NCBI GenBank assembly: GCA_046289355.1
Contig: JBKBVX010000002.1
Coordinates: 1-32,274 of the forward strand
Length of the DNA: 32,274 bases
Source of the DNA: Patescibacteria group bacterium
GTDB taxonomy: Bacteria > Patescibacteriota > Patescibacteriia > UBA2591 > CALHIP01
Direction: 5' to 3'
Position numbers and translations under genes: made by a program. The notes beneath the pieces are model-generated. The model was given only the letters and a program-made list of their open reading frames with translations, was not told the origin of the DNA and ran no database searches. The first letter of the stretch is position 1; each line of letters begins with the position of its first letter. This document shows, one piece after another, positions 4,399 through 26,802 of this stretch.

Positions 4399-4416
4399 TC
4401 AAAATCTAATTAGAAT
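4388..4416 (+). promoter_or_regulatory. promoter candidate TTGAAA-17-TAGAAT, with the -10 ending 6 nt before the ATG at 4423 (leaderless geometry)
   Basis: TTGAAA at 4388-4393, a 17-nt spacer, TAGAAT at 4411-4416, then AAAATT and the ATG. Confidence 0.5.
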
Positions 4417-4422
4417 AAAATT

Positions 4423-4863
4423 ATGTTAACAACAGGACAAATTATTTTAAGACTAATTTTATCAGTAATTTTTAGTAGCCTTATCTACTGGTTTAGAAAA
4501 GATAAAGAAAAATTTTTGGAAATGAAATCTTATCTTTTATCTTCTTTAGCTGGTACCTCCCTTTCTTTGTTATCTTTAAAAATTTTTCTCACTTATTACT
4601 CAAAAACTGATTTGGTTATTTTACCAGCAGTCCTTATTTTAGGAGTCTTTGTCATTAGTATAAATTTTATTCAAAAAGGGGAAGCAAAAGAAGCAATAAG
4701 CTCTCTTTTTTCTCTTTTGTTTGTTTCCTTAATTGGTCTAATAATCGGTTTTGGGTTTTATCCTTTAGCTATTTTTCTTACTTTGTTATTGTTAATTATT
4801 ATTTTTTTAACTGGTCTTTCTTTTAATTATCTTTTAAAAAAGATATGGAAAAAGCAAAAATAA
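4423..4863 (+). CDS. small polytopic membrane protein, MgtC/SapB-like (tentative)
   Basis: 146 aa with 4-5 hydrophobic helices. The N-terminus IILRLILSVIFSSLIYWFRKDKE...SYLLSSLAGTSLSLLS resembles the MgtC-family opening (LRL..A...G..IG.ERE...G.RT..LV..GS). The family assignment comes from memory of that motif only. Confidence 0.4.
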   Translation: MLTTGQIILRLILSVIFSSLIYWFRKDKEKFLEMKSYLLSSLAGTSLSLLSLKIFLTYYSKTDLVILPAVLILGVFVISINFIQKGEAKEAISSLFSLLFVSLIGLIIGFGFYPLAIFLTLLLLIIIFLTGLSFNYLLKKIWKKQK

Positions 4864-5327
4864 AGTCATCTTTTTGGAGTAAAATTACTAAATTATCAGA
4901 AGAAGATTTAAAGAAAACAGGTAAAGAAATTGAAGCTGTTAAAAAAGAAGAAAAGGAAGAAAAAAAAGAATTGTGGCTACCAGAAACTTCAGAAGGAAAA
5001 CTTTCTTTAGATATCTATCAAAAAGGGGAAGAAATTATTGTTAAATCTGCCTTAGCTGGTGTTAAACCAGAAGATTTAGAAATAACAATTGATAAAGATA
5101 TTTTAACTATCAAAGGTAAAAGAGAGAGGGAAGATTCAGAAAAGTTAGAAGAAATTAAATATTTCCACCAGGAATGTTTTTGGGGACATTTTTCCCGGAC
5201 AGTTATTTTACCAGCTGAAGTAAAAATCGAAGAAGTTAAAGCCACTCTTAAAAATGGTATCTTAACTATTAATTTACCAATTAAGAAAAAAGAGGAGGGG
5301 GTAAAAAAAGTAAAAATAAAAAAATAA
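4845..5327 (+). CDS. Hsp20/alpha-crystallin family small heat-shock protein
   Basis: 160 aa with an alpha-crystallin domain: LSLDIYQKGEEIIVKSALAGVKPEDLEITIDKDILTIKGKRE...FSRTVILPAEVKIEEVKATLKNGILTINLPIKK. It overlaps the previous ORF by 19 nt. Confidence 0.9.
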   Translation: MEKAKIKSSFWSKITKLSEEDLKKTGKEIEAVKKEEKEEKKELWLPETSEGKLSLDIYQKGEEIIVKSALAGVKPEDLEITIDKDILTIKGKREREDSEKLEEIKYFHQECFWGHFSRTVILPAEVKIEEVKATLKNGILTINLPIKKKEEGVKKVKIKK

Positions 5328-5328
5328 A

Positions 5329-7074
5329 ATGAGTTGGAAAAAAACATTTTTTTCTATCTTTTTTATTTTTCTTTTAATCGGAATGCTTTTTTATTTCTTC
5401 GTTTTTTATCAAAAAAAATATGCCAATCAAGTAATAACCAATCTTTATCTGGGAAAATATAACCTAAAAGGGCTATCAAAAGAAGAGGTTGAAAATTTTT
5501 TAGAAGAGAAAGTTCTTCAAATAGAAAGAGAAGGAATAAAACTTTCTGCCTTAGGAAAAGAAATGACTCTTTATCCAATGGTTATTGCTTTGTCTGATCC
5601 AGATTTGACCAGAAGGATTATCCATTTCAAAATTGATGAAGTAATTGAAGAAATTTTTCTTTTACCACAAAGAAAAAATCCTTTTTCTTATTTCAAAGAA
5701 AAAAGAATCTATTTACCAGTTGATTTTTCTTCCGAAGAAATTTTAAAAATTCTTAAAGAAAAATTTTCCTCTTTAGAAGAAGCACCAAAAGATGCTTCTC
5801 TAAAATATGAAGCCGGTGAATGGAAAATCATCCCAGAAAAAGAAGGTTTTAGTTTCAATTACCAAAAGGCTATAGAAGATTTAAAAAATCGTTTAGCTAA
5901 TTTAAATTTAGAACCTATTCAACTTGAAACTATCATTTTAAAACCAAAAATTTATAGACAAGAAATTGAAGTTTCTTTATCTGAAATAGAAAAAATCATT
6001 GACACAGCACCAATTTATCTAATTTATGGTAAAAAGAAGTGGACAATTTCTAAGGAACTTCTTAAAAAATGGATAGATTTTAAGAAAGAGAATGGAAAAA
6101 TTGAATTTGACCTAAATCAAGATAAAATTGTTGATTTTTTAAAAAATATTGCCAAAGAAATCGATCAACCAGTTAAAGAAGCAAAATTTAAAATAGAAAA
6201 TGAAAAAGTTGTTGAATTCCAAATTTCCCAAGAAGGAAAAAAATTGAAAATTGAAGAAAATGTTAAAAAAATAAAAGAATATATTTTTTTGAAATTTAAA
6301 GAGATCGAACTCGAAGTGGAAACTATTAAGCCAACAATTCTTATTAGTGATATCAATGAATTAGGAATTAAAGAATTAGTTGGTCGAGGTGAATCAGATT
6401 TTAAAGGTTCACCAAAAAATAGAATTAATAACATTAAAATTGGGGCAAAAAATTTAAATGGAATTTTAATTAAACCAGGTGAAGAATTTTCTTTGCTCAA
6501 AGCTTTAGGGGAAATAAATGAAAGTAAAGGTTATTTACCAGAATTAGTGATAAAAGGGGATAGAACTATTCCTGAATTAGGGGGTGGTCTTTGCCAGATT
6601 GGAACAACCGCTTTCCGTGTTGCTTTATCTGCCGGCTTACCTATTACCCAAAGAACGCCCCATGCCTTCCGAGTCATCTATTATGAACCAGCTGGTGTTG
6701 ATGCCACAATTTATAATCCCTGGCCTGATTTTCGTTTCATCAATGATTATCAAAGTTGGCTTTTACTCCAAACAAAAATTGAAGGAACAAAATTGATTTT
6801 TGAATTATATGGCACCTCTGATGGTCGAAAAGTTGAGATTACACCGCCAAAAATTTTCAATATCGTTCCGCCCGGACCACCAAGGTATATTGAAACTGAA
6901 GAGTTAAAACCAGGCGAAAAGAAAAAAGTTGAAAAGGCAGTAGCAGGGGCTGATACAGAATTCACCCGTATCATCACTTATCCTAATGGTGAAAGAAAAG
7001 AGGAGGTTTGGAAATCTCATTATCGACCTTGGCCAGAAGTTTGGTTGATCGGTAAAGAATCTATTTCTCATTGA
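5329..7074 (+). CDS. VanW family protein with N-terminal membrane anchor
   Basis: 581 aa. The C-terminal VanW core reads GGGLCQIGTTAFRVALSAGLPITQRTPHAFRVIYYEPAGVDATIY. The N-terminal TM segment is FFSIFFIFLLIGMLFYFFVF. Confidence 0.85.
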   Translation: MSWKKTFFSIFFIFLLIGMLFYFFVFYQKKYANQVITNLYLGKYNLKGLSKEEVENFLEEKVLQIEREGIKLSALGKEMTLYPMVIALSDPDLTRRIIHFKIDEVIEEIFLLPQRKNPFSYFKEKRIYLPVDFSSEEILKILKEKFSSLEEAPKDASLKYEAGEWKIIPEKEGFSFNYQKAIEDLKNRLANLNLEPIQLETIILKPKIYRQEIEVSLSEIEKIIDTAPIYLIYGKKKWTISKELLKKWIDFKKENGKIEFDLNQDKIVDFLKNIAKEIDQPVKEAKFKIENEKVVEFQISQEGKKLKIEENVKKIKEYIFLKFKEIELEVETIKPTILISDINELGIKELVGRGESDFKGSPKNRINNIKIGAKNLNGILIKPGEEFSLLKALGEINESKGYLPELVIKGDRTIPELGGGLCQIGTTAFRVALSAGLPITQRTPHAFRVIYYEPAGVDATIYNPWPDFRFINDYQSWLLLQTKIEGTKLIFELYGTSDGRKVEITPPKIFNIVPPGPPRYIETEELKPGEKKKVEKAVAGADTEFTRIITYPNGERKEEVWKSHYRPWPEVWLIGKESISH

Positions 7075-7099
7075 CAAAATTAAAAATTTTGCCTATTAT
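7071..7099 (+). promoter_or_regulatory. promoter candidate TTGACA-17-TATTAT for infB, with the -35 overlapping the vanW-family TGA stop
   Basis: A perfect TTGACA at 7071-7076 and TATTAT at 7094-7099. The ATG at 7131 would give a leader of roughly 25 nt without an SD. Confidence 0.4.
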
Positions 7100-7130
7100 T
7101 AAACCAATCTTTTTTTATTTATCAACTAAT

Positions 7131-9104
7131 ATGAACATTTCTGAATTGGCCAGAAAATTAAAAGTCACTACCAAGGAGCTTAAAGAAAAATTACCTGAGC
7201 TCGGATTTGACATTGGTATGAAAGCAATTCAGATTCCTGATGAACAGGCAAAGAAAGTAATAGAAGCTTGGCAAGCAAAAAAGAAAGAAGAAGAGAAAAA
7301 AAGATATTTGGCTGAACTCAAAGAAAAATTAACTAAAAAAGAAGTTTTAAAAGAAAGAAAAATCACTATTCCTGAAGTTATTACTGTCCATCAGTTGGCA
7401 GAAAAATTAAATTTACCTGTAACTAAAGTTATTCAACAATTAATTAAAAATGGTGTCTTAGCCACCATTAATGATAATTTAGATTTTGAAATTGCTGTCA
7501 TTATCGCTGAACAACTTGGCTTTAAAGTTGAAAAAGAAACAGAAGAAAAAATTGAAATAGAAAAAGCATCTAAATTAAAAGAAAAATTAGAAAAATTATT
7601 AAAAGAGGAAAATAAAAAATTGTTAGAACCAAGACCTCCGATAATTGTAGTGATGGGCCATGTTGATCATGGTAAAACTTCCCTTCTTGATTTTATTCGC
7701 CAGACTCAAATTGCCTCTCAAGAACCAGGGGCAATTACTCAACATATTGGTGCCTATCAGGTCTCTAAAAATAATCGTCTTATTACTTTTATTGATACAC
7801 CAGGCCATGAAGCTTTCAAAACATTAAGAATGCGAGGTGGTCAAGTAGCAGATTTAGCTATTTTAGTCATAGCGGCTGATGATGGTGTCCAAGAACAAAC
7901 AATTGAATCTCTAAAAATTATCCAGAAGGAAAATTTACCTTTTATTGTAGCCATTAATAAAATCGACAAACCAGAAGCAGATCCAGAAAAAATAAAAAAA
8001 CAATTGGCTGAATTGAATCTTACTCCTGAAGAATGGGGTGGAAAGACAATTTGTCAAGAAGTCTCAGCTAAAACAGGGCAAGGAATTGATAAACTTTTAG
8101 ATTTAATTCTGTTAGTCGCTGATTTAGAAAAAGAAAAATTGATGGCTAATTTAAATCGACCAGCCATTGGAACAATCATTGAGGCCCATTTAGATAAAGG
8201 GGAGGGGCCAGTTGCTACAGCAATTATTCAAACCGGTAAATTAAAAATTAAAGATTTTATTATAGCTGGCGAAAGTTATGGCCGAGTTAGGGCTCTTCGC
8301 AATTGGCAAGGAAAAGATGTCAAAGAAGCTGTGCCAGGAATGCCTGTGAAAATAATTGGGTTTAAAACTTTACCAATAGTCGGAGAAATCTTAGAAGTAA
8401 AAAGTGAAAATGAATTTAAAAAAATAAAAAAAGAAATAAAAATAAGAAAAGAAATTTTAAAAAAGGGGTCTATTCTCCAACAAACTGAAAAAGAAGAGAC
8501 AATTAAATCATTAAATTTAATTTTAAAAGCTGATGTTTTAGGTTCATTAGAATCTTTAATTGAAGGAATCAAAAAATTAGAAATACCAACGGTAAAGATA
8601 AATATTGTTAAAAGTAGACTTGGTCCAATTAATGAAATTGAGGTCATTGAAGGAAAAAATCTATCAGCTATTATTGTTGGCTTTAATGTTGGGATTTTAA
8701 AAGAAGCAAAAAAGATTGCTGAAAAAGAAGGGGTGAAAATCTATCTTTCGAATGTTATCTATGATCTCCTGGAAAAAATAAAGAAGGAGATAGAAAAAAT
8801 AAGTGGACCAAAAATTAAAGAAATTCTTTTAGGAAAATTAAAAATTTTAGCTACCTTCAGAAAAGGAGATAATTTTTCTATTGTTGGTGGTAAGGTCTTA
8901 GAAGGAAAGATAAAACCAAATTCAAAAATAAGAATTTGGCGGAATAAAGAAATTATTGGTGAAGGGATATTGGCTGAATTACAGATCAATAAAATAAAAG
9001 CAAAAGAAGCATCTGAAGGAGAAGAGTGTGGAATAAAATATCAAGGAAGTGAAGAAATAAAAATAGGAGATATCTTCGAAGTTTATATAGAAGAAGTAAA
9101 GTAG
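7131..9104 (+). CDS. infB: translation initiation factor IF-2
   Basis: G-domain motifs VVMGHVDHGKTSLLD, DTPGHEAF and NKIDK, followed by C-terminal IF-2 domains. I prefer ATG 7131 (MNISELARKL...) over the track's TTG at 7071. The 20 extra residues are hydrophobic junk and overlap the promoter-like sequence. Confidence 0.9.
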   Translation: MNISELARKLKVTTKELKEKLPELGFDIGMKAIQIPDEQAKKVIEAWQAKKKEEEKKRYLAELKEKLTKKEVLKERKITIPEVITVHQLAEKLNLPVTKVIQQLIKNGVLATINDNLDFEIAVIIAEQLGFKVEKETEEKIEIEKASKLKEKLEKLLKEENKKLLEPRPPIIVVMGHVDHGKTSLLDFIRQTQIASQEPGAITQHIGAYQVSKNNRLITFIDTPGHEAFKTLRMRGGQVADLAILVIAADDGVQEQTIESLKIIQKENLPFIVAINKIDKPEADPEKIKKQLAELNLTPEEWGGKTICQEVSAKTGQGIDKLLDLILLVADLEKEKLMANLNRPAIGTIIEAHLDKGEGPVATAIIQTGKLKIKDFIIAGESYGRVRALRNWQGKDVKEAVPGMPVKIIGFKTLPIVGEILEVKSENEFKKIKKEIKIRKEILKKGSILQQTEKEETIKSLNLILKADVLGSLESLIEGIKKLEIPTVKINIVKSRLGPINEIEVIEGKNLSAIIVGFNVGILKEAKKIAEKEGVKIYLSNVIYDLLEKIKKEIEKISGPKIKEILLGKLKILATFRKGDNFSIVGGKVLEGKIKPNSKIRIWRNKEIIGEGILAELQINKIKAKEASEGEECGIKYQGSEEIKIGDIFEVYIEEVK

Positions 9105-9106
9105 TT

Positions 9107-10021
9107 TTATTTTCGGTAAAACTGAGCTGCTTTTTCCGGTGGCAAAGAATTGACAATAATCCCTGAACCAAGTTCAACACCAGCCCAAATTGATTCACGT
9201 GGCTGGATTTTTAAATAAAAGTGTTGATCTGGATCATGAACAATTTGATGGAAGAAAAAATTGTATTCCAAATTTAAAATAAAAATTTTAACTAAAATTT
9301 TTTTTAAAACTTTAGCAAAAGAAATAGTTTCTTTTTTTGTTAATTCAGTAATATTATCAACATGTCTTCTTGGTAAAATCCAGGCTTCATAATGATATTC
9401 AGAAGCATAAGGACAAAAGGCAACTATTTCTTTATTTGAAAAAATTTTTCTTGGTCCTTTTTCTTCTTTTTTTAAGATTTGACAATAAGGACAAACTCCT
9501 TTTTCTGATTTATATTTTCTCGCCGCTGACTGTTCCTCAACAACTTCCGGTGGTAAAATCTTTGAGGCAAAAACTTGAGAATGGGCATGAATTAAAGTAG
9601 CACCGGCTTTAGAACCTTCATTTTTAAAGACCAAGATGTATTCAATATCTTTAATTTTGGAAAGATTTTTAATTCGATCTTTGTAAACCTCAAGAAGACC
9701 AACTATTTCTTCTAATTTAAATTGGGCTAATTGTTTAAAATGATCAGGAGTATCAATCAAAACTTCATGTTGACCATAGGCTTTTGGATTATCTAAGGTG
9801 ACAATTGGATATTTATTTTTTAAAGCCAAATATTGCCAATTTTTTAAAGAAGGATAGGCTTTAATAACTAAATTTTTCTCAATATGAGAAGGGCAAAATG
9901 GACAACTTTTTTCAGGAATAATAATAGCCTTAGCAATTGTCCCTCGTGGTCTTTTTGCCCGACCTGGAGTAATAATGACATATTTATCTAAGAAATAATG
10001 TTTACGAATTTCTGATTTCAT
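9107..10021 (-). CDS. galT: GalT-superfamily hexose-1-phosphate nucleotidyltransferase / NDP-sugar phosphorylase-like enzyme
   Basis: 304 aa with a CPFCP zinc motif, HEVLIDTPDH and the His-x-His-x-Gln active site (IHAHSQV). Its start lies 20 nt inside the end of the upstream glgA-like gene. It is the last gene of the glucan operon. Confidence 0.75.
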   Translation of the reverse strand: MKSEIRKHYFLDKYVIITPGRAKRPRGTIAKAIIIPEKSCPFCPSHIEKNLVIKAYPSLKNWQYLALKNKYPIVTLDNPKAYGQHEVLIDTPDHFKQLAQFKLEEIVGLLEVYKDRIKNLSKIKDIEYILVFKNEGSKAGATLIHAHSQVFASKILPPEVVEEQSAARKYKSEKGVCPYCQILKKEEKGPRKIFSNKEIVAFCPYASEYHYEAWILPRRHVDNITELTKKETISFAKVLKKILVKIFILNLEYNFFFHQIVHDPDQHFYLKIQPRESIWAGVELGSGIIVNSLPPEKAAQFYRK

Positions 10022-11480
10022 AATTTAAGAGTTTTTTATAAAGGGATAAATATTTTTTAGCAGAAATCTGCCAAGAAAAATTTTTCCTCATTGCTTTCTT
10101 TTGAATGATTCGCCAGATCTTTTTATTTTGAAAAATTTTAATCGCCTTTTTAAGAGTAATCAACAATTCATCAGAACTGTATTTTTTAAAAACAAAGCCA
10201 GTTCCTTTAACTTTATTGTTTATTACTTTAACATTTTCGACGGTATCTTTCAAGCCACCGACTGCTCGAACAACAGGAATTGTTCCATATTTCATAGAGA
10301 TCATTTGACCTAAACCACAAGGTTCAAAACGAGATGGCATTAAAAATAGATCTGCTCCAGCATAAATTTTTTGGGCCAGTTTTGCGTCAAAACCAATTTT
10401 GGTATAGACATTTTTTGGATATTTTCTGGCCAAATCTAAAAGTTGATTTTCGTAAAAATCTTGTCCCTGCCCTAAAAAAACAAACTGAACACCAATTTTT
10501 ATTAGCTCCGGAGCAATTTGGACAATCAATTCAGAACCTTTTTGATCAGTCAGTCGCCCGACAAAACCAAAAATTGGAGAAGAAGAAATTGGTAAATGAC
10601 AATTTTCTTGTAAATCTTTTTTGTTAATTTCTTTTCTCTCTAAAGTTTTGATTGAATAATTAATTTTAATTTCTTTATCATTTTCTGGTGAAAACCTTTC
10701 TTCATCAATACCATTTAAAATGCCAAATAAATCTTTTTTTCTTTTTTTCAATGTCTTTTCTAAACCTTCGCCAAATTCTTGAGTCAAAATTTCTTTAGCA
10801 TAAGATGGGCTGACTGTATTAATCAAATCAGCATTAAGAATTCCTTGTTGGAGAAGATTAAGATCTAATTGTTCTGGACCAAATTTTATTTTTAAAGATT
10901 CATTTTCATTACCTTTTAGTCCAAGGAAATCAAAAATTTTTTCGGCCTGCCATCTCCCCTGATTAGCTAGGTTATGAATGGTCAATAAACTTCGAATTTT
11001 GAATTTTAAATTTTGGCTTGGTAATTTTATCAAAAGTGGCAAAATTGCGCAGTGCCAATCCTGACAATGAATAATTTCCGGTTGCCAATTTAAGAGAGGC
11101 AAAATTTCTAAAATTGATTTTGAGAAAAATAAAAAACGCTCTATTTCGATAAATTTCTCAACGAAGGCAGTTTTTTCAAAATAAATATCACCACTGCTTA
11201 AGTATTTCTTATTTTCAATTAAATAAACTAAAACCTCAGATTGAGGAATTTTTGTTTTATAAATTTTTATCAATTCATCAACTTGGCCGAATCTGATCCT
11301 TTTTTCATTTAAAAATTTAAGCGGATATTTTTTCTCATCAATAATCTCATAACGGGGTAAAACAACTCTAATATCAACACCTAATTTTTTTAAAGCTTTT
11401 GGTAAGGCACCGGATACATCCCCTAAACCACCAACTTTAGCTAAAGGAGTTAATTCAGAAGTAGCAAAAAGGACTTTCAT
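10002..11480 (-). CDS. glgA: glycogen/starch synthase (GT5, GlgA-like), paralog 1
   Basis: 492 aa. N-terminal KVLFATSELTPLAKVGGLGDV (K-x-GGL motif), HCQDWH, TIHNLANQG and C-terminal PSRFEPCGLGQM. Confidence 0.9.
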   Translation of the reverse strand: MKVLFATSELTPLAKVGGLGDVSGALPKALKKLGVDIRVVLPRYEIIDEKKYPLKFLNEKRIRFGQVDELIKIYKTKIPQSEVLVYLIENKKYLSSGDIYFEKTAFVEKFIEIERFLFFSKSILEILPLLNWQPEIIHCQDWHCAILPLLIKLPSQNLKFKIRSLLTIHNLANQGRWQAEKIFDFLGLKGNENESLKIKFGPEQLDLNLLQQGILNADLINTVSPSYAKEILTQEFGEGLEKTLKKRKKDLFGILNGIDEERFSPENDKEIKINYSIKTLERKEINKKDLQENCHLPISSSPIFGFVGRLTDQKGSELIVQIAPELIKIGVQFVFLGQGQDFYENQLLDLARKYPKNVYTKIGFDAKLAQKIYAGADLFLMPSRFEPCGLGQMISMKYGTIPVVRAVGGLKDTVENVKVINNKVKGTGFVFKKYSSDELLITLKKAIKIFQNKKIWRIIQKKAMRKNFSWQISAKKYLSLYKKLLNYEIRNS

Positions 11481-11486
11481 AGAAAA

Positions 11487-12368
11487 CTATCTTTTAATTT
11501 TTGACAATAATTTTTTAATTTCTTTGTCAATGCCAATTTTAAAATATTGCCAAAGACTTCTAATAGGAAAACCCCATTCTTCTGGTAAATCACCATGGAA
11601 ATCAGAGCCAATACTGACAAGAAATCCTAATTCTTTAGCTATTTTTTGATAATGCTCAATATTAGCCCAATTATGATGAGAAGAAATAGCTTCAATACCA
11701 TCTAATCCTTTTTTCTTTAAAATTGGAAAAAGCCAATCATCTCGCCAACTAAGTTGTTGAACTGGATGAGCCAGCACAACTAAACCACCAGCTTTTTTAA
11801 TCAAATCAATAGCTGTAGGAAGAAAAATTTCACTTTTTTGCCAAATTTTCTGAGCAGATTCAAGAAAATAACGCTTAAGAATTTCTCCAGAAGTAATAAT
11901 TTCTTTATTTTTGAAATCTTTTCTTATTTTTTTAAAATTAATAGGGTTATCCTTAATTAATTCCACTATCCAACTGATTCCTAAATAGGAAGGTAAAAAT
12001 TTGTCCTTTCTTTTTTCTATTATCCAACCATCTTTTTCTATTTCTTTGAGATACTGAGCAACTCTTTGAGCATGTTTAATCTGATTTTCTTTAAAGAAAA
12101 GATTGATTTTTTTATCTTTCGGATCAAAATTATATCCCAAAATATGAAGGTGATAATTTCTAAAAAAAGTATAAATTTCCACTCCAGGAATAACCTTTAT
12201 CCCAAACTTTTTACCAAAATCAATTGCTTCTTTTATCCCATCAAGACAATGGTGATCAGTTAAGGAAATAACAGAAAAACCATTTTTCTTTGCTTTTTTT
12301 ATTAATTCTTGAGGCGAATAAATACCATCAGAATAAAAAGAATGAAGATGAAGATCAATATATTTCAT
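11487..12368 (-). CDS. PHP-domain metal-dependent phosphoesterase (COG0613/TrpH-like)
   Basis: 293 aa with YIDLHLHSFYSDG, ISLTDHH, VIPGVEI, LAHP and GSDFHG, the histidine/aspartate clusters of the PHP fold. Its ATG overlaps the kinase TGA (ATGA). Confidence 0.8.
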   Translation of the reverse strand: MKYIDLHLHSFYSDGIYSPQELIKKAKKNGFSVISLTDHHCLDGIKEAIDFGKKFGIKVIPGVEIYTFFRNYHLHILGYNFDPKDKKINLFFKENQIKHAQRVAQYLKEIEKDGWIIEKRKDKFLPSYLGISWIVELIKDNPINFKKIRKDFKNKEIITSGEILKRYFLESAQKIWQKSEIFLPTAIDLIKKAGGLVVLAHPVQQLSWRDDWLFPILKKKGLDGIEAISSHHNWANIEHYQKIAKELGFLVSIGSDFHGDLPEEWGFPIRSLWQYFKIGIDKEIKKLLSKIKR

Positions 12369-13405
12369 AGTTTTAGATTGATTAATTCTTTTTCTGCCAA
12401 ATCAAGACTCTTTTTGACAGCTAAAATTTTGTCTTTTGGTGGCCAGATCACAAAAGATAAAATACCAGCCATTTGTAAAAAGTTTCTTATTTTAAAGAAT
12501 TTTATTCTTATCCACTCACTTTTTCCTATCTTTTTTTTAAAATAGTTTTTTAAAAAGATATTTTCTATATTTTTTTGGTAAAGTAAAAATTTCTTAGGAA
12601 GATAATATCTTAACATTGATTCAGTTTGAGCTAAAAATGAGGCAACGTCATTTAATGGATCATAGAGATCACTTTCGCTAAAATCAAGAATTTTTATTTT
12701 CTTTCCACTAAGAATAAGATTGCCAAAATGAAAGTCACCATGGGTTAAGATATAATCATTTTCTTTAAGAAAAAAGTTTTTGTTTCTTTCCCTAAATTTT
12801 TTCAATGAATAATAAATTTTTTTCATTCTTTTTTCAAAAGAAGGTAAACATTTTCTTATTAGAAAAAACCAATGACGATGTTCTTTTTCTTCTTCTTTTT
12901 TATTTTTAATAATAGGAAAATCTTTAATTTTCAAAGAATGGAATTTCTTAAGGAGAAGACCAATTTGAGGAATAATTTTTAAAATCTTAGAAATCCTTTT
13001 TTCTTGAAGAATATCTTGTAAAGATTTACCTTTTATTTCTTTATAAAATACTACATTAAAAGAAGGAAGATAATCTAAAATAACTGGTATTTCTTTAAAA
13101 CAATTTTTCTTTAAAAGTTTTGCCACTAAAAACCATCTTTTTGGCACTGTTGTTAAAGCATTGATTTTAGCTAAAACATTTTCTTTTCTTTTATATCTTC
13201 CAAAATTTAAAAATAATTTATATCTAATGGTCAAATTTTTAAATTTGCCTAAAAAATTTCTTAATATCTCAATTTCAAGATCATCTATTTTCGCCCCAGG
13301 AAAATATTTTTTTATTTTCCGATTAAAAAGGTTAATTACCCAATCTTTATCTAAAAACTTTTTTATCTTTTTTTTGCTGATTTTCTTTTTCAACTTAATA
13401 AACAT
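12365..13405 (-). CDS. APH-fold (aminoglycoside/choline/maltose-kinase-like) phosphotransferase
   Basis: 346 aa with the catalytic loop THGDFHFGNLIL and the metal-binding segment ILDFSESDLYDPLNDVASFL. The substrate cannot be read from the sequence. Confidence 0.7.
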   Translation of the reverse strand: MFIKLKKKISKKKIKKFLDKDWVINLFNRKIKKYFPGAKIDDLEIEILRNFLGKFKNLTIRYKLFLNFGRYKRKENVLAKINALTTVPKRWFLVAKLLKKNCFKEIPVILDYLPSFNVVFYKEIKGKSLQDILQEKRISKILKIIPQIGLLLKKFHSLKIKDFPIIKNKKEEEKEHRHWFFLIRKCLPSFEKRMKKIYYSLKKFRERNKNFFLKENDYILTHGDFHFGNLILSGKKIKILDFSESDLYDPLNDVASFLAQTESMLRYYLPKKFLLYQKNIENIFLKNYFKKKIGKSEWIRIKFFKIRNFLQMAGILSFVIWPPKDKILAVKKSLDLAEKELINLKL

Positions 13406-13407
13406 AT

Positions 13408-15357
13408 CTAATTTATAAGTTTAAATCCAGTGATTTTGAATTTAAAGGCAAAAAATTGACGATAAGGAATTTCAACTCTTTTATTTTTGAAAAATTTTTC
13501 TTTCCATCCATTATCTTCTATCAAAATTGATAAACTGATTTTTTTCCCTTTATTTTTATCAAGAGATTTTAATAAATTCAAGAACCAAAAAATAAAGGAA
13601 TTTTCAGTAAGATTAATTATTATTTTTTTGCCTTTTACTTTATATTGACATTGATTTTTATTGCCATAAATTCCTTCTTGAGGAAAACAAGCACCGGAAA
13701 AACTATTCCATCCATCATTTAAATAAAATTTTATCTCTTTTGAAGGAAACTCACTAAGATAGAGATTACCATTTTTATCCTGAGATAAACCTAATGGACC
13801 TAATTTCTTTTGTAAAAGAGATCTTTTAATTGCCTCTTTTAGTTTTAATCTTTGTTCTTTTAAAAATTTTTTCTCTGAAAAATCCTCGAAAGATTTTTTA
13901 ACTAATGGAGAAAATTCATCAATCGAATGTTCATAAAAAGATTTTAGAGATGGAAGTTGACGGACAATTCTTAAATCATCAACAACATGTAAAACATCAT
14001 AGATATCAGTTCCTTCTTTTAATTTATAAATTGCATCTCGCCATTTAATTGCTTTTTCAAATTCTAAATTTTCAATTGCTTTTCTCATTTCATCTTCAAA
14101 TTCTAAAATCATTAGATTATACCAATCAGTTGGTGTTCTTCTTTTAAAAGGGATCTTTTCCTTAGTTTTATAAAAATTTCGATAAATTTCTCTAATTTTC
14201 CCACTTCTTTGCCAATCAAAGGCAATTTTTAAAATATCTTGGTAATATTTTTCAGCTCTTTTTTTCGCTTTTTCATCTGGCATCAAAAAAATTATTTTTT
14301 TCAAATTATAGGCACCTTGCTCAATCATTTCTAAACTCCACCAAGGCATAGCTGAGGCCCACCAATACTGATCAGAAGAAATTGCTTTATCTAATTCATC
14401 TCTAATTTTTTGATAATTTTTAAGTTTTTTATTTTTTTCTACTTCATTAATAACAAAATAAGTAAATTCCCATTGGAGTTGATGAATTGGATTCTTTGGA
14501 TGTTGCCAAAGAATAAAAGGAGAAAATTCTCCTTTTTCTTTTTCTTTTATCAACCAGAAATCTTGTTCTTCTGAAGACCAAGTAGAGGGGCGAGGAATAA
14601 TTTTTTCCTTGCTCTTAAATTTTTCTAAAATTTCAGAAATTTTTACTTTCTTAATAGATTTGTCTTTAAAAATTTCTTGGAAAAATTTCTCTAAACCTGG
14701 ACGATGATGTCCAAAAGTCTCTGCATCCATGACAGTTAAAAGATATCGATTTTTTCTTAGATCATCTTTTAATTCAATTTTTAATGAATTTATATTTCTG
14801 ATAATAGCTGAAAGAATCAAAACACTAATTCTTTTATCGCGGAAAATAATATAAAAATTAGAAAGATTTTTAATTTGATAAATTTTTTGAAAATCTGGTT
14901 TTTGTGGAGAGGCTAATTCCTCAGCTAAAATATATTTAAAACCTAATTTTTTAGCTATCTGAGCAACTTTAAAATCATAAGCCAATTCTGGTGAGAAAAA
15001 ACCTTTTGGCTGATAAAGATTACCAAAATATTTTCTACTTGTTTTATTATTAATTAAAATCTGACGCTTAATTTCTGACTCTGGTAAAAGAGGCAAAAAA
15101 GGATGATATTTGGCTGAACCAGTGAATTCAATCTGACTGCGTTTTGCCAAAAACCTAAAGTCATCAATCACATCTTTATAACCATTTTTTTCTAAAATTT
15201 CTAAAAGACCAGCATTGATATTAACTGTCATTTTAGCCTTTGGGTTATCTTTTAAGATTTTTAATAATTTCCGATAACTTTCATTAACAACTCTTTCTAA
15301 GATATCTTTTTGCTGAAAATATGGTTGATAGAAATGGAGGAAAATAGACCAGAGCAT
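13408..15357 (-). CDS. GH57 family glycoside hydrolase/transferase, long form with a UVR-like motif and an unassigned C-terminal domain
   Basis: 649 aa. The five GH57 conserved regions are recognisable: HFYQP, QIEFTGSAKYHPFLP, GFFSPELAY (nucleophile-position Glu), MDAETFGHH (acid/base-position Asp) and SSDQYWWAS. Residues about 413-446 (MILEFEDEMRKAIENLEFEKAIKWRDAIYKL) look like a UVR motif. The last ~135 aa are beta-rich and unassigned. Confidence 0.85.
   Translation of the reverse strand: MLWSIFLHFYQPYFQQKDILERVVNESYRKLLKILKDNPKAKMTVNINAGLLEILEKNGYKDVIDDFRFLAKRSQIEFTGSAKYHPFLPLLPESEIKRQILINNKTSRKYFGNLYQPKGFFSPELAYDFKVAQIAKKLGFKYILAEELASPQKPDFQKIYQIKNLSNFYIIFRDKRISVLILSAIIRNINSLKIELKDDLRKNRYLLTVMDAETFGHHRPGLEKFFQEIFKDKSIKKVKISEILEKFKSKEKIIPRPSTWSSEEQDFWLIKEKEKGEFSPFILWQHPKNPIHQLQWEFTYFVINEVEKNKKLKNYQKIRDELDKAISSDQYWWASAMPWWSLEMIEQGAYNLKKIIFLMPDEKAKKRAEKYYQDILKIAFDWQRSGKIREIYRNFYKTKEKIPFKRRTPTDWYNLMILEFEDEMRKAIENLEFEKAIKWRDAIYKLKEGTDIYDVLHVVDDLRIVRQLPSLKSFYEHSIDEFSPLVKKSFEDFSEKKFLKEQRLKLKEAIKRSLLQKKLGPLGLSQDKNGNLYLSEFPSKEIKFYLNDGWNSFSGACFPQEGIYGNKNQCQYKVKGKKIIINLTENSFIFWFLNLLKSLDKNKGKKISLSILIEDNGWKEKFFKNKRVEIPYRQFFAFKFKITGFKLIN
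14338..14395. repeat. 58-nt block, 56/58 identical to 15580-15637 (copy 1, inside the long GH57 gene)
   Basis: Direct reading: ccaccaaggcAtagctgaGgcccaccaatactgatcagaagaaattgctttatctaat versus the same string with G and A at the two capitalised positions. The last 39 nt are identical. Confidence 0.9.
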
Positions 15358-15360
15358 ATT

Positions 15361-16575
15361 TTATTTTAATATCTTACCACCAAAATATCTAATTGGTTCA
15401 TTTTTAAGATAACTTTCTTTTAACTTTTTGGCATAACCAGAATTTTGCCATTCTTTAGCCATTAAAATTATTTTATTTTTCAATTTTTCTGCTTTTTTAA
15501 AAATTTTTTCATCTAAATTTTTTAATTTTTTTAACACTTCAATAAACATTTCTGCTCCTTGTGAAATAATTTCTACTGACCACCAAGGCGTAGCTGAAGC
15601 CCACCAATACTGATCAGAAGAAATTGCTTTATCTAATAATTTTTTTGCTTTTTTATAATTTATATCTTTCTTTGAATTTTCAATTTCCTTTATTACTAAA
15701 TAAGTCAATTGCCATTGAGCTTGATGAATAGGATTTTCTGGATGTTGCCAGAGATTAAAGAAAATTTTTCTTTTTAATTCCTCTTTTTTTGACGCCCAAG
15801 AACAATTTAATGGTTCAATAATTTCTTCTCTTTGATAAATTTTTAATAATTCAGAGATAGTTATAGTTTTTATTTTTTTTATTAATTTTTCAAAGATTTT
15901 TTCAGTTCCTGGTTTATGATGACCTAAATTTTCACCATCGAAAGCAGTAATAAGAAAATTATCACAGCGACCATCGTGTCTTAAAGCTTGCCAAAATTTT
16001 TCTTCTGAATCAAGCCAGCCAGTGAAAAAAATATCGGAAAGACCTCGATTACGGAAGACAACTTTTAATCTACTTCTTTTAATTCGATAATTTTTTTCAA
16101 AACTTACTTCACCAATCCTACCTTGATAAGCAATTTCATCTAAAATCAGCCATTTATAACCTAAAGATTGAATAATTTTGGCTATCTTTTTATTATAGGC
16201 CATCTCTGGAGGAAAAAAACCTTTTGGTCGCCAGACTTCCTCAAAATATTTCTTATTTATATTTTCATTTAATCTGATTTGGCGAATAATTTCTTTTTGA
16301 GGAATAAGGGGTAAAAGAGGATGATAGATAGCTGAACCAACAAGTTCAATCTGACCATTTTCAACTAATTTTTTTATTCTTTTTAAAATTTCTTTAAAAT
16401 CATTTTTTACTAAAAGTTCAGTTAAACTTCCACAAATATTTAAAGTAATTCTTGCTTTTTGATTCTTTTCTAATATTTTAAGAATAGGTGAATAAGATTC
16501 TCGAACAACCTTTACAATAATTTCTTTTTTTTGCCAGTGAGGTTGATAAAAATGAAGGAAAGGGGACCAAAGCAT
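15361..16575 (-). CDS. GH57 family glycoside hydrolase/transferase, short form
   Basis: 404 aa, a paralog of the N-terminal 400 aa of the neighbouring gene: HFYQP, GQIELVGSAIYHPLLP, GFFPPEMAY, FDGENLGHH, SSDQYWWAS. Confidence 0.85.
   Translation of the reverse strand: MLWSPFLHFYQPHWQKKEIIVKVVRESYSPILKILEKNQKARITLNICGSLTELLVKNDFKEILKRIKKLVENGQIELVGSAIYHPLLPLIPQKEIIRQIRLNENINKKYFEEVWRPKGFFPPEMAYNKKIAKIIQSLGYKWLILDEIAYQGRIGEVSFEKNYRIKRSRLKVVFRNRGLSDIFFTGWLDSEEKFWQALRHDGRCDNFLITAFDGENLGHHKPGTEKIFEKLIKKIKTITISELLKIYQREEIIEPLNCSWASKKEELKRKIFFNLWQHPENPIHQAQWQLTYLVIKEIENSKKDINYKKAKKLLDKAISSDQYWWASATPWWSVEIISQGAEMFIEVLKKLKNLDEKIFKKAEKLKNKIILMAKEWQNSGYAKKLKESYLKNEPIRYFGGKILK
15580..15637. repeat. 58-nt block, 56/58 identical to 14338-14395 (copy 2, inside the short GH57 gene)
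   Basis: See copy 1. Both copies encode the GH57 region-5 peptide AISSDQYWWASA(M/T)PWW. Confidence 0.9.
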
Positions 16576-16581
16576 ATAAAA

Positions 16582-18069
16582 TTAATTAAGATGGCTAACT
16601 TTTTCGATGGCTTTTTTATATAGCTCAATATATTTGTTGGCTGGTAAATCCCAAGAAAAAACTTGGCGCATTGCTTTTTTAACTAACTTTTTCCATTTTT
16701 CTTTATATTTGAAAGCTTCAATAGCTCGAGCAATAGCAACTAAAAGATCATTCTCATGCCAATCAGAAAAAACAAAACCATTACCCTCTTCTTTTTGAGG
16801 ATCCCAATCTTTAATAGTATCAGCCAAACCACCAACTTTCCTAACAATAGGAATTGAACCATATCTCAAACTTTTAAGTTGAGAAATACCACAAGGTTCA
16901 AAGCGAGATGGAAGAAGAAAAAGATCACTCCCTGCATCAATTTTAGACTCCCAAACTTCAGAAAATGGGGTAATGTAAGCAAGTTTTTTAGGATATCTTT
17001 CTGCATTGCGGGCAAAATATTTTTCATATTCTTTTTTCCCGCTACCAACCATTATAATTTGTAAATCCATCTTTAAAAGTGTTGGTAAAATTTTGATAAT
17101 CAAATCAAAACCCTTTTGTTCAGTTAAACGGTGAGCCAAGCCAATCAAAGGAATTTTTAAATTTTCTTCTAAACCAACTTCTTTCTGCAAAGCCAATTTA
17201 TTCTTCTCTTTTTTCTCTAAAGATTGCCAGTCATAGTTAAAATAGATATTCTTGTCAAATTTTGGATTATGAACCGAGTAATCAATGCCATTAATAATTC
17301 CATAGAGATCATTTTTTCTTATCTGACAATATTTTTCTAGACCTTCGCCAAACTCAGGTGTGAGAATTTCTTCGCGATATCTCTCACTAACAGTATTGAT
17401 GATATCAGCAAATAGAATTCCTCTTTTTAAGAAATTTATAAGATTCCATTTTTCTTTCTCATTTATCTTGGGTAAAGGATTTCGACCGTTATCTCTTTTT
17501 TCTGGAGGAACAAAGCGATTATTTAATCCATGAGGACCTTGATAAGCCATATTATGGATTGTCAAAAGAGTAGGTACTTTTTTATCCTTAAAGAAAAATT
17601 TATTTTTTATCAAAAATGGGATCAGAGCAGTGTGCCAGTCATGACAATGGATAACTGAAGGATTAAGATTTAATTTTTCAATAAAAAAGAGGGAAGTAAA
17701 ACAAAAAAAATAAAAAACCTGGCCGTCGTTTTGATAACCATATAATTTTTCTCTTTTCCCAAAAAAAGAAGGTTCGGAAATTAAAAAAATAACTAATGGC
17801 TTAGGTAGTCTTTTAGTAATTTCTGTTCGATAAACTGATGATAAAAAAGATTCTCCATCAATTTCTATTTTTTCTTCTAAAATTTTTTCAATTTTATTTT
17901 CAAAAGAAGATGGCGAAATAAATCCATAAAAAGGAAGAAAAGAAAAAACCTCTTGCCCTTTTCTGATTAATTCTTTTGGCAAATGAAGAGCCACATCGCC
18001 TAAACCACCTGTCTTGGCGAACGGACTCATCTCTGCTGAAAGAGAAATAATTCTTAATTTTTTTATCAT
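16582..18069 (-). CDS. glgA: glycogen/starch synthase (GT5, GlgA-like), paralog 2
   Basis: 495 aa with LSAEMSPFAKTGGLGDV, HCHDWH, TIHNMAYQG and PSRFEPCGISQL. It is the first gene of the operon. Confidence 0.9.
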   Translation of the reverse strand: MIKKLRIISLSAEMSPFAKTGGLGDVALHLPKELIRKGQEVFSFLPFYGFISPSSFENKIEKILEEKIEIDGESFLSSVYRTEITKRLPKPLVIFLISEPSFFGKREKLYGYQNDGQVFYFFCFTSLFFIEKLNLNPSVIHCHDWHTALIPFLIKNKFFFKDKKVPTLLTIHNMAYQGPHGLNNRFVPPEKRDNGRNPLPKINEKEKWNLINFLKRGILFADIINTVSERYREEILTPEFGEGLEKYCQIRKNDLYGIINGIDYSVHNPKFDKNIYFNYDWQSLEKKEKNKLALQKEVGLEENLKIPLIGLAHRLTEQKGFDLIIKILPTLLKMDLQIIMVGSGKKEYEKYFARNAERYPKKLAYITPFSEVWESKIDAGSDLFLLPSRFEPCGISQLKSLRYGSIPIVRKVGGLADTIKDWDPQKEEGNGFVFSDWHENDLLVAIARAIEAFKYKEKWKKLVKKAMRQVFSWDLPANKYIELYKKAIEKVSHLN

Positions 18070-18087
18070 ATTAAGGAAATTTTTAAA

Positions 18088-18116
18088 ATTCTAACTCTTT
18101 TTAAATAATTCTTCAA
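18088..18116 (-). promoter_or_regulatory. promoter candidate TTGAAG-17-TAGAAT for the seven-gene glucan operon
   Basis: On the minus strand, TTGAAG is the reverse complement of 18111-18116 and TAGAAT of 18088-18093, with a 17-nt spacer. The -10 ends 18 nt before the ATG at 18069. Confidence 0.4.
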
Positions 18117-18130
18117 GTAAAATTAGGTTA

Positions 18131-18163
18131 TTGACATTTTTTAAATTTTTGAGAAAATAATAT
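18131..18163 (+). promoter_or_regulatory. weak promoter candidate for the LysM-CHAP gene (perfect TTGACA, poor -10 at canonical spacing)
   Basis: TTGACA at 18131-18136. At a 17-nt spacing the -10 is only AAAATA. The better TAATAT (18158-18163) needs a 21-nt spacer. Confidence 0.25.
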
Positions 18164-18172
18164 TGGAAGAAA

Positions 18173-19327
18173 ATGAAAAATAGCTTATCTAAAATTAAGA
18201 TTCTTCTTATTTTAATCAATTTTTTAAAAAAAGCGGTTTTTTCTGTTTTTTGGTTTTTAGAAAAAATCGCTAAATTATTAATAAACTTCCTTTTTATTAT
18301 TGTAAAAATATTTGCTTTCTTAATTGCTCCTTTTTATTTTAAAATAAAGAAATCAATTAAAGAGTTCTTATCAAATTTTCATTATCAAAAAGAGTTATTT
18401 TCTCTCTTTATTCAAAAAGGGATAATTTTTATTTCATTGTTTTTGATTGTTATTTTTATTTTTTTTGAAGAAAAAACTACTTTTGAAGAAAAATTTTTTG
18501 CTCAAGCACTTGCTGTTGAAGAGAAGGGTAGTAAAAACATCTCTTTTGAAATAGCATCAGAAACTGAAGAAGCAATACCTAAGCCAAGTCTTACTTTTGA
18601 AAAAGAATTCATTCCAACAAGAACAGAAATTGAAAAATATATAGTTAAGCCAGGAGATACTATTTCTTCAATCGCTAAAGATTTTGATGTCTCTATTAAT
18701 ACCATCCTTTGGGAAAATAAATTGACCATTAATTCAATTATTAAACCGGGTCAGATTTTAAAAATTCTTCCTGTTTCTGGTGTCTCCCATAAAGTAAAAC
18801 AAGGAGATACAATAGAAAAAATCGCTCAACTTTATCGAGCTAACATTGAAGATATTATTAGATTTAACAACTTAGAGGAAGAACCATTAAAGGTAGGAGA
18901 TGTTATTATTATTCCTGAAGGAAAAATCCCACCTCCTCCGCCTAGACCAAGGATCTATAAAAGTCAAGATAAAATTTGGCTGACAAAAGAAGAAGGAAAA
19001 AGAAGGCAAGGAACAAATTGTCGCGATTTTTATCCTGGTCAATGTACTTGGTATGTTGCTCAAAGATATTGTATAACTTTTTCTGGTCATGCTAAATCTT
19101 GGTTAGCTAATGCTGCCCGGGCTGGTTATAAAATTGGCAATACACCACAGGTTGGAGCTATTATTTCTTTAAAAGAAACATGGTATGGTCATGTAGGAAT
19201 TGTTGAGGAGGTAAAAGAAAATACAATTGTTATCTCTGAAATGAACCATCTTGGGCCATGGATTGTCAATAAAAGAGAGTTGAATATCAATGATTGGCGA
19301 ATCAATGGCTATATTTATCCCTTTTAA
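18173..19327 (+). CDS. membrane-anchored peptidoglycan hydrolase with two LysM repeats and a C-terminal CHAP domain
   Basis: 384 aa. LysM repeats are YIVKPGDTISSIAKDFDVSINTILWENKL and HKVKQGDTIEKIAQLYRANIEDIIRFNNL. There is a PPPPPRP linker, then a CHAP domain with GQCTWYVAQR (Cys) and GHVGIVEEV (His). Confidence 0.85.
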   Translation: MKNSLSKIKILLILINFLKKAVFSVFWFLEKIAKLLINFLFIIVKIFAFLIAPFYFKIKKSIKEFLSNFHYQKELFSLFIQKGIIFISLFLIVIFIFFEEKTTFEEKFFAQALAVEEKGSKNISFEIASETEEAIPKPSLTFEKEFIPTRTEIEKYIVKPGDTISSIAKDFDVSINTILWENKLTINSIIKPGQILKILPVSGVSHKVKQGDTIEKIAQLYRANIEDIIRFNNLEEEPLKVGDVIIIPEGKIPPPPPRPRIYKSQDKIWLTKEEGKRRQGTNCRDFYPGQCTWYVAQRYCITFSGHAKSWLANAARAGYKIGNTPQVGAIISLKETWYGHVGIVEEVKENTIVISEMNHLGPWIVNKRELNINDWRINGYIYPF

Positions 19328-26695: not shown

Positions 26696-26706
26696 AAAAT
26701 TAAAAT

Positions 26707-26778: not shown

Positions 26779-26802
26779 ATAATTGCCACTCTTAGAAGAA
26801 AT

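Follow-up and report, generated by a model that had tools for sequence, protein, structure and literature searches.

Contig JBKBVX010000002.1 (assembly GCA_046289355.1), from a member of the Patescibacteria or Candidate Phyla Radiation (CPR), carries a conserved, modular and cytoplasmic gene cluster for alpha-glucan metabolism. The whole contig of 32,274 nt, with a GC content of approximately 30%, constitutes the window analyzed here, and the nearest relatives of its proteins are encoded by metagenome-assembled genomes (MAGs) labeled 'Patescibacteria group'. In order of transcription, the cluster encodes a glycogen synthase of glycosyltransferase family GT5 (GlgA1), a short and a long enzyme of glycoside hydrolase family GH57 (GH57a and GH57b), a kinase of the aminoglycoside phosphotransferase (APH) fold, a PHP-family phosphoesterase, a second GT5 synthase (GlgA2) and a GalT-like enzyme (Table 1). 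Five of these seven genes are ordinary as judged by homology. It is very probable that all seven form a conserved glycogen operon with genuine accessory members. An initial annotation, made from the DNA sequence alone, had read the locus as a coherent alpha-glucan unit that included its two odd members, the kinase and the PHP protein. Conservation across diverged genomes supports both parts of this reading: the kinase adjoins a GH57 gene even where it is only 22–37% identical, and the phosphatase is found only beside the kinase.

Related loci were collected by scanning metagenome contigs with a GH57b alignment, which recovered at least 514 GH57b relatives and from which 80 loci were kept and annotated with profiles of the window proteins together with Pfam and NCBIfam checks. 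A total of 90 related loci were fetched. Nearly all GH57b relatives are encoded directly downstream of a GlgA. Counts refer to 44 loci, non-redundant and each extending at least 3 kb downstream. An APH kinase follows GH57 in 25 of these, while alpha-glucan phosphorylase (GlgP; TIGR02094, 454 bits) occurs in five, either directly downstream of GH57 or upstream of GlgA1; kinase and GlgP never occur together (0/44), and 14 loci have neither. GlgA2 continues 17 of the 25 kinase loci and the GalT-like gene is present in 11 of the 44. A phosphatase (PHP, or a His_Phos_1 protein in locus L018) is encoded in 12 loci, every one of which also has the kinase and two GH57 genes. Conversely, loci with two GH57 genes have the kinase in 17 of 19 cases. 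When all fetched loci are counted, a GH15 gene lies upstream in five (L001, L004, L009, L028 and L029), all kinase-type. GlgA1 and GH57b form the ancient core of this system. The kinase (with or without a phosphatase), GlgA2 (with or without GalT), GH57a and the upstream GH15 are recurrent accessory modules, found where alpha-glucan phosphorylase is absent.

The seven genes of the window are found in identical order in L001, L004, L028 and L076, and with small insertions in L053 and L088; GH57b is only 42–51% identical in L028, L076, L053 and L088. Close relatives have kinases of 63–74% identity. The arrangement in L001 and L004 is GH15-GlgA1-GH57a-GH57b-APH-PHP-GlgA2-GalT, adjoining IF-2, and L002/L008 have the five-gene form GlgA1-GH57a-GH57b-APH-GalT. 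More distant variants include GH15-GlgA-GH57-GH57x-GH57-APH-PHP in L009 (kinase 37% identical) and GlgA-GH57-GH57(UVR)-APH-APH-GlgA-GalT in L010 (kinase 22% identical). The record of the L009 contig (CAZMJP010000001.1, positions 1-21017) names an 'uncultured Gammaproteobacteria bacterium'; its synteny is of the Patescibacteria type (PGI-YebC-RuvC-GH15-GlgA-GH57-APH-PHP-LysM/CHAP), and it is probably a mis-binned or mislabeled MAG contig.

The flanks of the related loci contain housekeeping genes, and the sole recurrent sugar-related neighbor is glucose-6-phosphate isomerase, represented by two unrelated folds. A cupin-type isomerase (GPI) lies directly upstream in GPI-GlgA-GH57-GlgP clusters, and a SIS-type phosphoglucose isomerase (PGI) upstream of kinase-type clusters. 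Within 4 kb on either side of the related loci, there is no recurrent nucleoside triphosphate (NTP)-transferase, GlgC, GH13, GH77, GlgX, GlgP or PGM family. The four-gene arrangement of cupin-type GPI, GlgA, GH57 and a short alpha-glucan phosphorylase (~565 aa) was observed in L033, L041, L058 and L063, and is a second, phosphorolytic flavor of the CPR glycogen cluster. These comparisons modify two further claims of the initial annotation. The composition had been considered unusual: the gene order is in fact widespread and represents one variant of a modular CPR cluster. No functional account of it was found in a comprehensive 2024 review (PMC11046441) or in the literature searched, so that the initial reading is not refuted. 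The system had also been called non-canonical, and the canonical glgC and GH13 glgB are indeed missing from the window; however, the lack of GH13 GlgB or of GlgP is unremarkable by itself. GH57 branching enzymes are known, and sister clusters carry GlgP.

The seven minus-strand open reading frames (ORFs) are separated by 6, 3, 2, -4, 6 and -20 nt (negative values denoting overlap), the ORF listing agreeing with the initial annotation in this respect, and Pfam and NCBIfam profile searches confirm the family proposed for each. Their catalytic motifs are all intact and none has a signal peptide. A functional unit is not established by this spacing alone, since functionally unrelated genes elsewhere in the window are spaced equally closely (-20 to +6 nt), and tight junctions are found genome-wide (MPG/CTP synthase, 2 nt; VanW/IF-2, -4 nt). 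It is the conservation across diverged genomes that indicates the cluster is more than a chance assemblage. Regulatory signals proposed from sequence did not hold up. A promoter candidate had been placed only before the first gene, and the site at 18116-18088 does exist (9/12 matches), though such sites occur at the frequency expected by chance: 44 sigma-70-like matches were observed in 8800-18400, against 44.8 +/- 6.9 expected, and many minus-strand sites within the cluster equal or surpass it. Nor is the cluster devoid of internal hairpin terminators as had been claimed, there being three weak minus-strand terminator-like hairpins within it. Because the DNA is AT-rich and matches occur at chance level, promoter and terminator scans are uninformative here. 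The operon promoter presumably lies in the intergenic gap upstream of GlgA1.

Table 1. Genes and bordering gap of the alpha-glucan cluster, in order of transcription.
Feature	Coordinates (nt)	Strand	Characteristics
GlgA1, GT5 glycogen/starch synthase	16582-18069	-	495 aa, KTGGLGDV; TIGR02095 + PF08323
GH57a, short GH57	15361-16575	-	404 aa; PF03065; catalytic domain + helical bundle only
GH57b, long GH57	13408-15357	-	649 aa; PF03065 + PF02151 (UVR)
APH/choline-kinase-fold small-molecule or glycan kinase (putative)	12365-13405	-	346 aa; PF01636; HGDFHFGN
PHP-family metal-dependent phosphoesterase, TrpH/YciV-like	11487-12368	-	293 aa; PF02811
GlgA2, second GT5 glycogen synthase	10002-11480	-	492 aa, KVGGLGDV; TIGR02095
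GalT-like HIT-family nucleotidyl transferase or NDP-sugar phosphorylase (putative)	9107-10021	-	304 aa; PF01087; HAHSQ
Non-coding gap, divergent, shared with LysM-CHAP gene	18070-18172	.	103 nt; sole non-coding gap at cluster border

Both synthases belong to the GT5 GlgA family, scoring 491 bits (GlgA1) and 526 bits (GlgA2) against TIGR02095 (cutoff 328), and GlgA1 matches PF08323 with an E value of 2.7e-59. They contain the KTGGLGDV (GlgA1) or KVGGLGDV (GlgA2), RLT(E/D)QKG and PSRFEPCG motifs, the last of these representing the catalytic Glu region. Residues including G21, G22, R314, K319 and E391 (GlgA1 numbering) are identical in at least 97% of 80 GlgA sequences. In a neighbor-joining tree of these 80 sequences, all 26 downstream copies fall in one clade and all 54 upstream copies outside it, with GlgA1-type proteins always encoded upstream of GH57. 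Both groups retain every catalytic motif, and only two alignment columns tell them apart. The lone GlgA of L005 and L007, genomes without a GH57 cluster, is of the GlgA2 type. GlgA1 and GlgA2 are 39% identical, and the two GH57 enzymes 44% identical. A recent duplication was considered as the source of the doubled genes and rejected on the basis of these identities and of the separate clades; judged by their sequences, GlgA1/GlgA2 and GH57a/GH57b are ancient paralog pairs.

GH57a and GH57b are likewise secure members of their family, matching PF03065 with 136 and 115 bits (E values of 2.2e-39 and 4.1e-33; gathering score 21.2). The conserved sequence regions (CSRs) of GH57 can be recognized as HFYQP, GQIE, F(P/S)PE(M/L)A, (F/M)D(G/A)E..GHH and AISSDQYWW. 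Of 107 sequences, all have the Glu nucleophile of CSR-3 and 106 have the Asp proton donor of CSR-4; the corresponding residues of GH57b, Glu124 and Asp211, are invariant. A total of 23 GH57a sequences group together, apart from GH57b and from single-copy GH57 proteins. The best solved relative of both enzymes is the 4-alpha-glucanotransferase of T. litoralis (E ~1e-10; for GH57a, 1k1w, E 3e-10). The GH57 proteins open directly with CSR-1, which begins at residue 7 of GH57a, and are therefore predicted to be cytoplasmic; extracellular starch degradation was rejected for this reason and for the lack of a signal peptide. In GH57b, the helical bundle is followed by a coiled-coil motif of the UVR type (aa 419-448, nt 14014-14103; PF02151, E 6e-6), also detected by Pfam in the GH57b of the five related loci for which domain tables were available (L001, L002/L003, L004 and L010), including the 460-aa homolog in L010. 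The C-terminal ~190 aa of GH57b had no family match in profile searches, and a single-sequence AlphaFold prediction of the protein reached a pLDDT of 41.8.

The kinase is a member of the APH/choline-kinase-like group, matching PF01636 with 37 bits, above the gathering score. Its HGDFHFGN loop (HxDxxxxN) and metal-binding Asp241 are intact, and H222, D224, N229 and D241 do not vary among 28 relatives. An AlphaFold2 model (pLDDT 89) consists of a single kinase domain without a carbohydrate-binding module, and in Foldseek it reaches TM scores of 0.55-0.65 to choline and aminoglycoside kinases. Relatives by fold and profile are generic, including APH(2'') aminoglycoside kinases, the kinase domain of ACAD11, and choline, MTR and amicoumacin kinases. 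Because Foldseek returned only generic APH, choline-kinase and MTR-kinase matches, the substrate cannot be deduced from the fold comparison. Maltokinase and NahK are absent from the top 50 fold and top 60 profile matches. The protein likewise falls outside the Mak/Pep2 maltokinases, since the window kinase has no match to the maltokinase model TIGR02457 and its L010 homolog scores 21 bits against a cutoff of 375. An exhaustive search with a hidden Markov model among 1.84 billion sequences yielded 621 representatives at E<=1e-3 and 23 at E<=1e-30; a scan of genome contigs with the single kinase sequence as query found no relatives. Tandem APH kinase genes occur in L010 (10001-12057) and L079 (1972-3943), and some proteins of double length (~670 aa; P0156, P0160, P0165 and others) contain two kinase matches, which suggests a duplicated or fused two-kinase form of the module. 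A remote APH-fold relative (P0284) is encoded in L091 (Ga0072682_119115, 2128-10002), an unrelated glycan locus, where its neighbors are four GT4 glycosyltransferases, two DUF218 proteins and a ROK kinase.

The PHP protein is an accessory partner of this kinase and is encoded directly after it. It matches PF02811 with 65 bits against 26.4, and its HLHSFYSDG, DHH, GVE and GSDFHG motifs preserve the metal ligands. Scores against equivalog models are below both cutoffs, at 138 bits for nucleoside-bisphosphate phosphatase (cutoff 400) and 109 bits for RNase RNM (cutoff 375), and its PDB matches are 2yb1, 9etk and 7ug9. In L018 (12869-14916), a 341-aa protein with an N-terminal His_Phos_1 domain adjoins the APH kinase, its gene lying directly before that of the kinase; it looks like a non-orthologous replacement of PHP.

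The GalT-like protein belongs to the GalT branch of the HIT superfamily (PF01087, 55 bits against 22.1). Its best PDB match, over the full length, is 1z84, the ADP-glucose phosphorylase At5g18200 of Arabidopsis (E 6.6e-37; query residues 3-303 against chain residues 23-346). HAHSQ corresponds to HSHSQ of 1z84, SCPFC to SCPFC and CPYC to the second CxxC, such that the HxHxQ motif and both Cys-x-x-Cys/His metal sites of At5g18200 and class I GalT are shared. However, identity to At5g18200 is low, and the protein is about equally close to 6k5z from Pyrobaculum, the second match (E 2e-33), which was deposited as a galactose-1-phosphate uridylyltransferase. Scores of 96.2 bits against TIGR00209 (cutoff 102.1) and 110 bits against NF008724 (cutoff 448) are below both cutoffs. 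A further difference from At5g18200 is that the gene is translationally coupled to a glycogen synthase, overlapping GlgA2 by 20 nt. The adjacency of GlgA2 and GalT is kept in at least seven different downstream contexts, indicating that the pair moves as a unit. GalT-like genes are widespread in Patescibacteria (>1000 relatives); in some genomes the gene is found ~8 kb downstream of GlgA2, beside HSP20-VanW-IF2, and in L005, L006 and L007 it is outside any glg operon. Mere inherited synteny with HSP20-VanW-IF2 was considered as the reason for the adjacency and rejected, as GlgA2 and GalT are paired in at least seven other contexts. Between the GlgA2 and GalT-like genes of L005 (3196-7104) lies a gene for a 1302-aa GyrA with an intein bearing a LAGLIDADG homing-endonuclease domain.

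A detailed model of the cluster can be advanced tentatively, in which it would be a cytoplasmic operon for the synthesis and turnover of alpha-1,4/alpha-1,6-glucan, and the 'hydrolase plus kinase' variant of a widespread CPR cluster. GlgA1 and GlgA2 would extend alpha-1,4 chains with ADP- or UDP-glucose as donor, and GH57b, the universal partner of GlgA1, would branch or trim the polymer in place of GH13 GlgB. GH57a, together with GH15 glucoamylase in sister genomes, would release glucose or malto-oligosaccharides by hydrolysis. The APH-fold kinase, which occupies the slot held by alpha-glucan phosphorylase in sister clusters, would use ATP to re-phosphorylate the released sugars, and so return them to the phosphorylated pool as phosphorolysis does in GlgP-type clusters. 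PHP may dephosphorylate the kinase product or a phosphorylated glucan end. The GalT-like enzyme would interconvert glucose-1-phosphate and nucleoside diphosphate (NDP)-glucose, acting as an ADP-glucose phosphorylase or through exchange of nucleotidyl groups; encoded directly after GlgA2, it would tie the hexose-1-phosphate pool to the synthase in a cluster lacking GlgC. For the kinase, PHP and the GalT-like enzyme, the substrates named here are inferred. The recurring PGI neighbors fit a link to hexose phosphates. A more ambitious form of this proposal is doubtful: Patescibacteria would operate a glycogen cycle without GlgC and GlgP, in which an APH-fold kinase acts on glucose, malto-oligosaccharides or glucan alongside a PHP or histidine phosphatase, while a HIT-family ADP-glucose phosphorylase-like enzyme coupled to the second synthase supplies NDP-glucose and mobilizes the polymer, a chemistry new to bacterial glycogen metabolism.

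Several observations weigh against the synthesis-and-turnover model. The kinase has no specific kinship to any known sugar kinase, its best profiles being aminoglycoside 2''-kinases, the ACAD11 kinase domain and choline kinases. A catabolic sugar kinase needs no neighboring phosphatase, yet 12 loci encode one of either of two folds, and a kinase-linked phosphatase of two unrelated folds fits better with a cycle of phosphorylation and dephosphorylation on the glucan. The correlation between the kinase and GlgA2 is also left unexplained by a purely catabolic role of the kinase. The association statistics (Fisher p ~0.01) are indicative only, because the loci are phylogenetically related. On thermodynamic reasoning, a route from glucose-1-phosphate and ADP followed by GlgA amounts to a phosphorylase in reverse, and would thus be favored only at high ratios of glucose-1-phosphate to phosphate. 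The proposed branching role of a GH57 enzyme meets difficulties of its own. GH57a and GH57b score only 23-30 bits (GH57a, 27-30), over ~70 residues, against the branching-enzyme models NF041133 and NF041566 (cutoffs 920-1000). Their CSR-5 ends in WW, an amylopullulanase-like fingerprint (Martinovicova and Janecek, PMC6037648), rather than in the Phe plus non-aromatic residue of branching enzymes. By these sequence measures, both are outside the characterized GH57 branching-enzyme subfamily.

The cycle to which the phosphatase points would involve reversible phosphorylation of the glucan itself, with the kinase acting on glycogen hydroxyls or outer chains and PHP or the histidine phosphatase reversing the modification, thereby opening the polymer for GH57. 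This is judged unlikely, as is its corollary that the pair constitutes a bacterial functional analog, with unrelated folds, of the plant GWD/PWD-SEX4/LSF2 cycle. The restriction of the phosphatase to positions next to the kinase (12/12 loci), its substitution by a non-homologous His_Phos_1 protein in L018 and the co-occurrence of PHP solely with two-GH57 clusters are all consistent with such a cycle. Likewise, the tandem or fused double kinases (L010 and L079; ~670 aa) recall two site-specific dikinases, the closest sequence relatives of the kinase, such as APH(2''), phosphorylate ring hydroxyls of pseudo-oligosaccharides, and the remote APH relative in L091 is encoded among glycosyltransferases. 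The encoding of kinase and phosphatase alongside enzymes of glucan degradation, with a second kinase at some loci, parallels the phosphorylation cycle of plant starch. However, the folds are entirely different, with no homology to GWD, PWD, SEX4 or laforin, neither the kinase (a single domain in the AlphaFold2 model) nor PHP has a carbohydrate-binding module, and about half of the kinase loci lack an adjacent phosphatase; the resemblance is one of analogy only. Bacterial glycogen, moreover, is not known to be phosphorylated physiologically. A different use of an APH-fold kinase is seen in the GlgE pathway (TreS-Mak, GlgM, GlgE and GlgB), which similarly combines such a kinase with a GlgA-like transferase and retaining enzymes of glycoside hydrolase families. 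In a GH57-based analog of this pathway, the kinase would be a maltokinase producing maltose-1-phosphate, one GH57 would polymerize as a maltosyltransferase and the other would branch. Mak/Pep2 is also APH-fold and GlgE is a retaining transferase of a glycoside hydrolase family (PMC11046441), the kinase always follows a GH57 gene, and the L010 homolog gives a faint match to the TreS_Cterm 'putative maltokinase' model (21 bits). Such an arrangement is nevertheless very improbable: maltokinases are missing from the top PDB sequence and fold matches, the 21 bits of the L010 homolog compare with a TIGR02457 cutoff of 375 and the kinase fails the maltokinase models, TreS and GlgE were not found in the window or related loci, and the cluster has neither GlgE of the GH13_3 type nor GT4 GlgM. 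A second polymerase would also be superfluous, since two bona fide NDP-glucose-type synthases are present.

The exclusion of GlgP admits another interpretation, based on the GlgA2-GalT couple and considered quite unlikely, in which phosphorolysis is divided between two enzymes. GlgA2 would run in reverse (glucan + ADP -> ADP-glucose) and be pulled by the GalT-like enzyme (ADP-glucose + Pi -> glucose-1-phosphate + ADP), together replacing GlgP, with GlgA1 remaining biosynthetic. The net reaction would, by reasoning, be thermodynamically the same as that of GlgP. The adjacency of the pair (20-nt overlap here; together in at least seven contexts), the occurrence of GlgP in no locus with GlgA2/GalT or the kinase and in the same position in sister clusters, and the identity of the closest solved structure as the ADP-glucose phosphorylase At5g18200 are consistent with this. 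Conversely, GlgA2 is the more canonical synthase (526 bits to TIGR02095) and must synthesize in L005 and L007, as it is the sole GlgA there; L002 has GalT without GlgA2, and the GalT-like protein is about as similar to 6k5z (E 2e-33), deposited as galactose-1-phosphate uridylyltransferase. It is also highly unlikely that one or more of the genes for the kinase, PHP and the GalT-like enzyme are passengers without functional connection, of a housekeeping or regulatory nature, in a compact, co-directional string of CPR genes. Everywhere in the window, unrelated genes do adjoin tightly or overlap, the GalT-like gene has >1000 relatives in Patescibacteria and stands outside glg operons in L005, L006 and L007, and known proteins of this PHP type are pAp phosphatases or RNases. 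Against this, the kinase and GH57 genes stay adjacent in many different surroundings and even where the kinase is 22% identical, no PHP occurs without the kinase, GlgA2 and GalT travel as a pair, and the kinase and GlgP are mutually exclusive.

Comparison with the nearest described systems revealed this gene combination in none of them. Archaeal-type clusters, such as those of Sulfolobales and Thermoplasmatales (GT5 GlgA, GH57 'amylase' and GH15; PMC11046441) use the same GT5 and GH57 families, as well as the GH15 of sister loci, and also lack GH13 GlgB; an amylase-like GH57 has been raised as the missing branching enzyme of archaea in a 2024 Chem Rev review (PMC11046441). The window differs from these in being bacterial (CPR), in having two orthologous groups each of GlgA and GH57, and in adding a kinase, a PHP or histidine phosphatase and a GalT-like enzyme. 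Classical glgBXCAP loci share an ADP-glucose-type GlgA (TIGR02095 above cutoff), and the product is presumably intracellular glycogen in both, but the window has no GlgC, GH13 GlgB, GlgX or GlgP, and sister clusters have a short phosphorylase in place of the kinase module. In the galacto-N-biose/lacto-N-biose (GNB/LNB) and Leloir pathways, a sugar kinase, which can be APH-fold, and a GalT-family enzyme are also encoded in one locus, and the two genes are adjacent in L002; the GNB/LNB pathway provides a precedent for an anomeric kinase of the APH fold acting with a GalT-family enzyme. The window kinase, however, is no relative of NahK or GalK, GalE and the phosphorylases of those pathways are absent, and the context is one of glycogen enzymes. 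APH-fold maltokinase does act in alpha-glucan synthesis, but the same review of prokaryotic alpha-glucan enzymes contains no Patescibacteria, no GalT-type enzyme, no PHP or histidine phosphatase and no APH-fold kinase except Mak/Pep2 (PMC11046441). Papers on CPR bacteria in which glycogen is mentioned contain no account of the cluster, and no published description was found, a provisional result given that the literature search was incomplete. The locus is thus an apparently undescribed but widespread CPR glycogen cluster, three members of which have no described role in glycogen metabolism.

Elsewhere in the window, the remaining ORFs encode housekeeping proteins, including MPG, CTP synthase, HSP20, VanW, IF-2, LysM-CHAP and a ComM-like ATPase, as well as RNase P protein, PNPase, RecA, RNase Y, ClpP and DnaN. 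None of the ORFs of the whole 32-kb contig is a glgC, GH13, glgP, pgm or malQ gene, in agreement with the earlier statement that glgC, GH13 glgB and glgP are missing from the window. A lone GT4-family glycosyltransferase of 381 aa, not belonging to the glycogen cluster, is encoded at 25526-26671 (+), on the strand opposite to its neighbors; the gaps on its two sides measure 347 and 131 nt. A tRNA cluster, Leu(GAG)-Ala(GGC)-Val(GAC), is located at 1107-1353 and a separate tRNA-Arg(TCT) at 26706-26779. Besides these tRNAs, an Rfam scan of the window found no family at gathering score.

Patescibacteria account for a large share of bacterial diversity and have minimal metabolism, and the means by which they store and recover carbon are poorly understood. 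The cluster provides a concrete, conserved gene set for glycogen metabolism in this group, and ties an orphan family of APH-fold kinases, a PHP phosphatase and a GalT-like HIT enzyme to bacterial alpha-glucan metabolism. It also defines two old orthologous groups of GlgA and two of GH57 that are open to biochemical comparison. If the kinase and GalT-like module does replace GlgP and/or GlgC, it would constitute a new route of NDP-glucose supply or glucan mobilization, and would bear on the question of which members of GH57 carry out branching in the absence of GH13 GlgB. The kinase family, its pairing with phosphatases, the GlgA2-GalT couple and the apparent exclusion of GlgP together provide testable hypotheses of glycogen metabolism independent of GlgC and GlgP.

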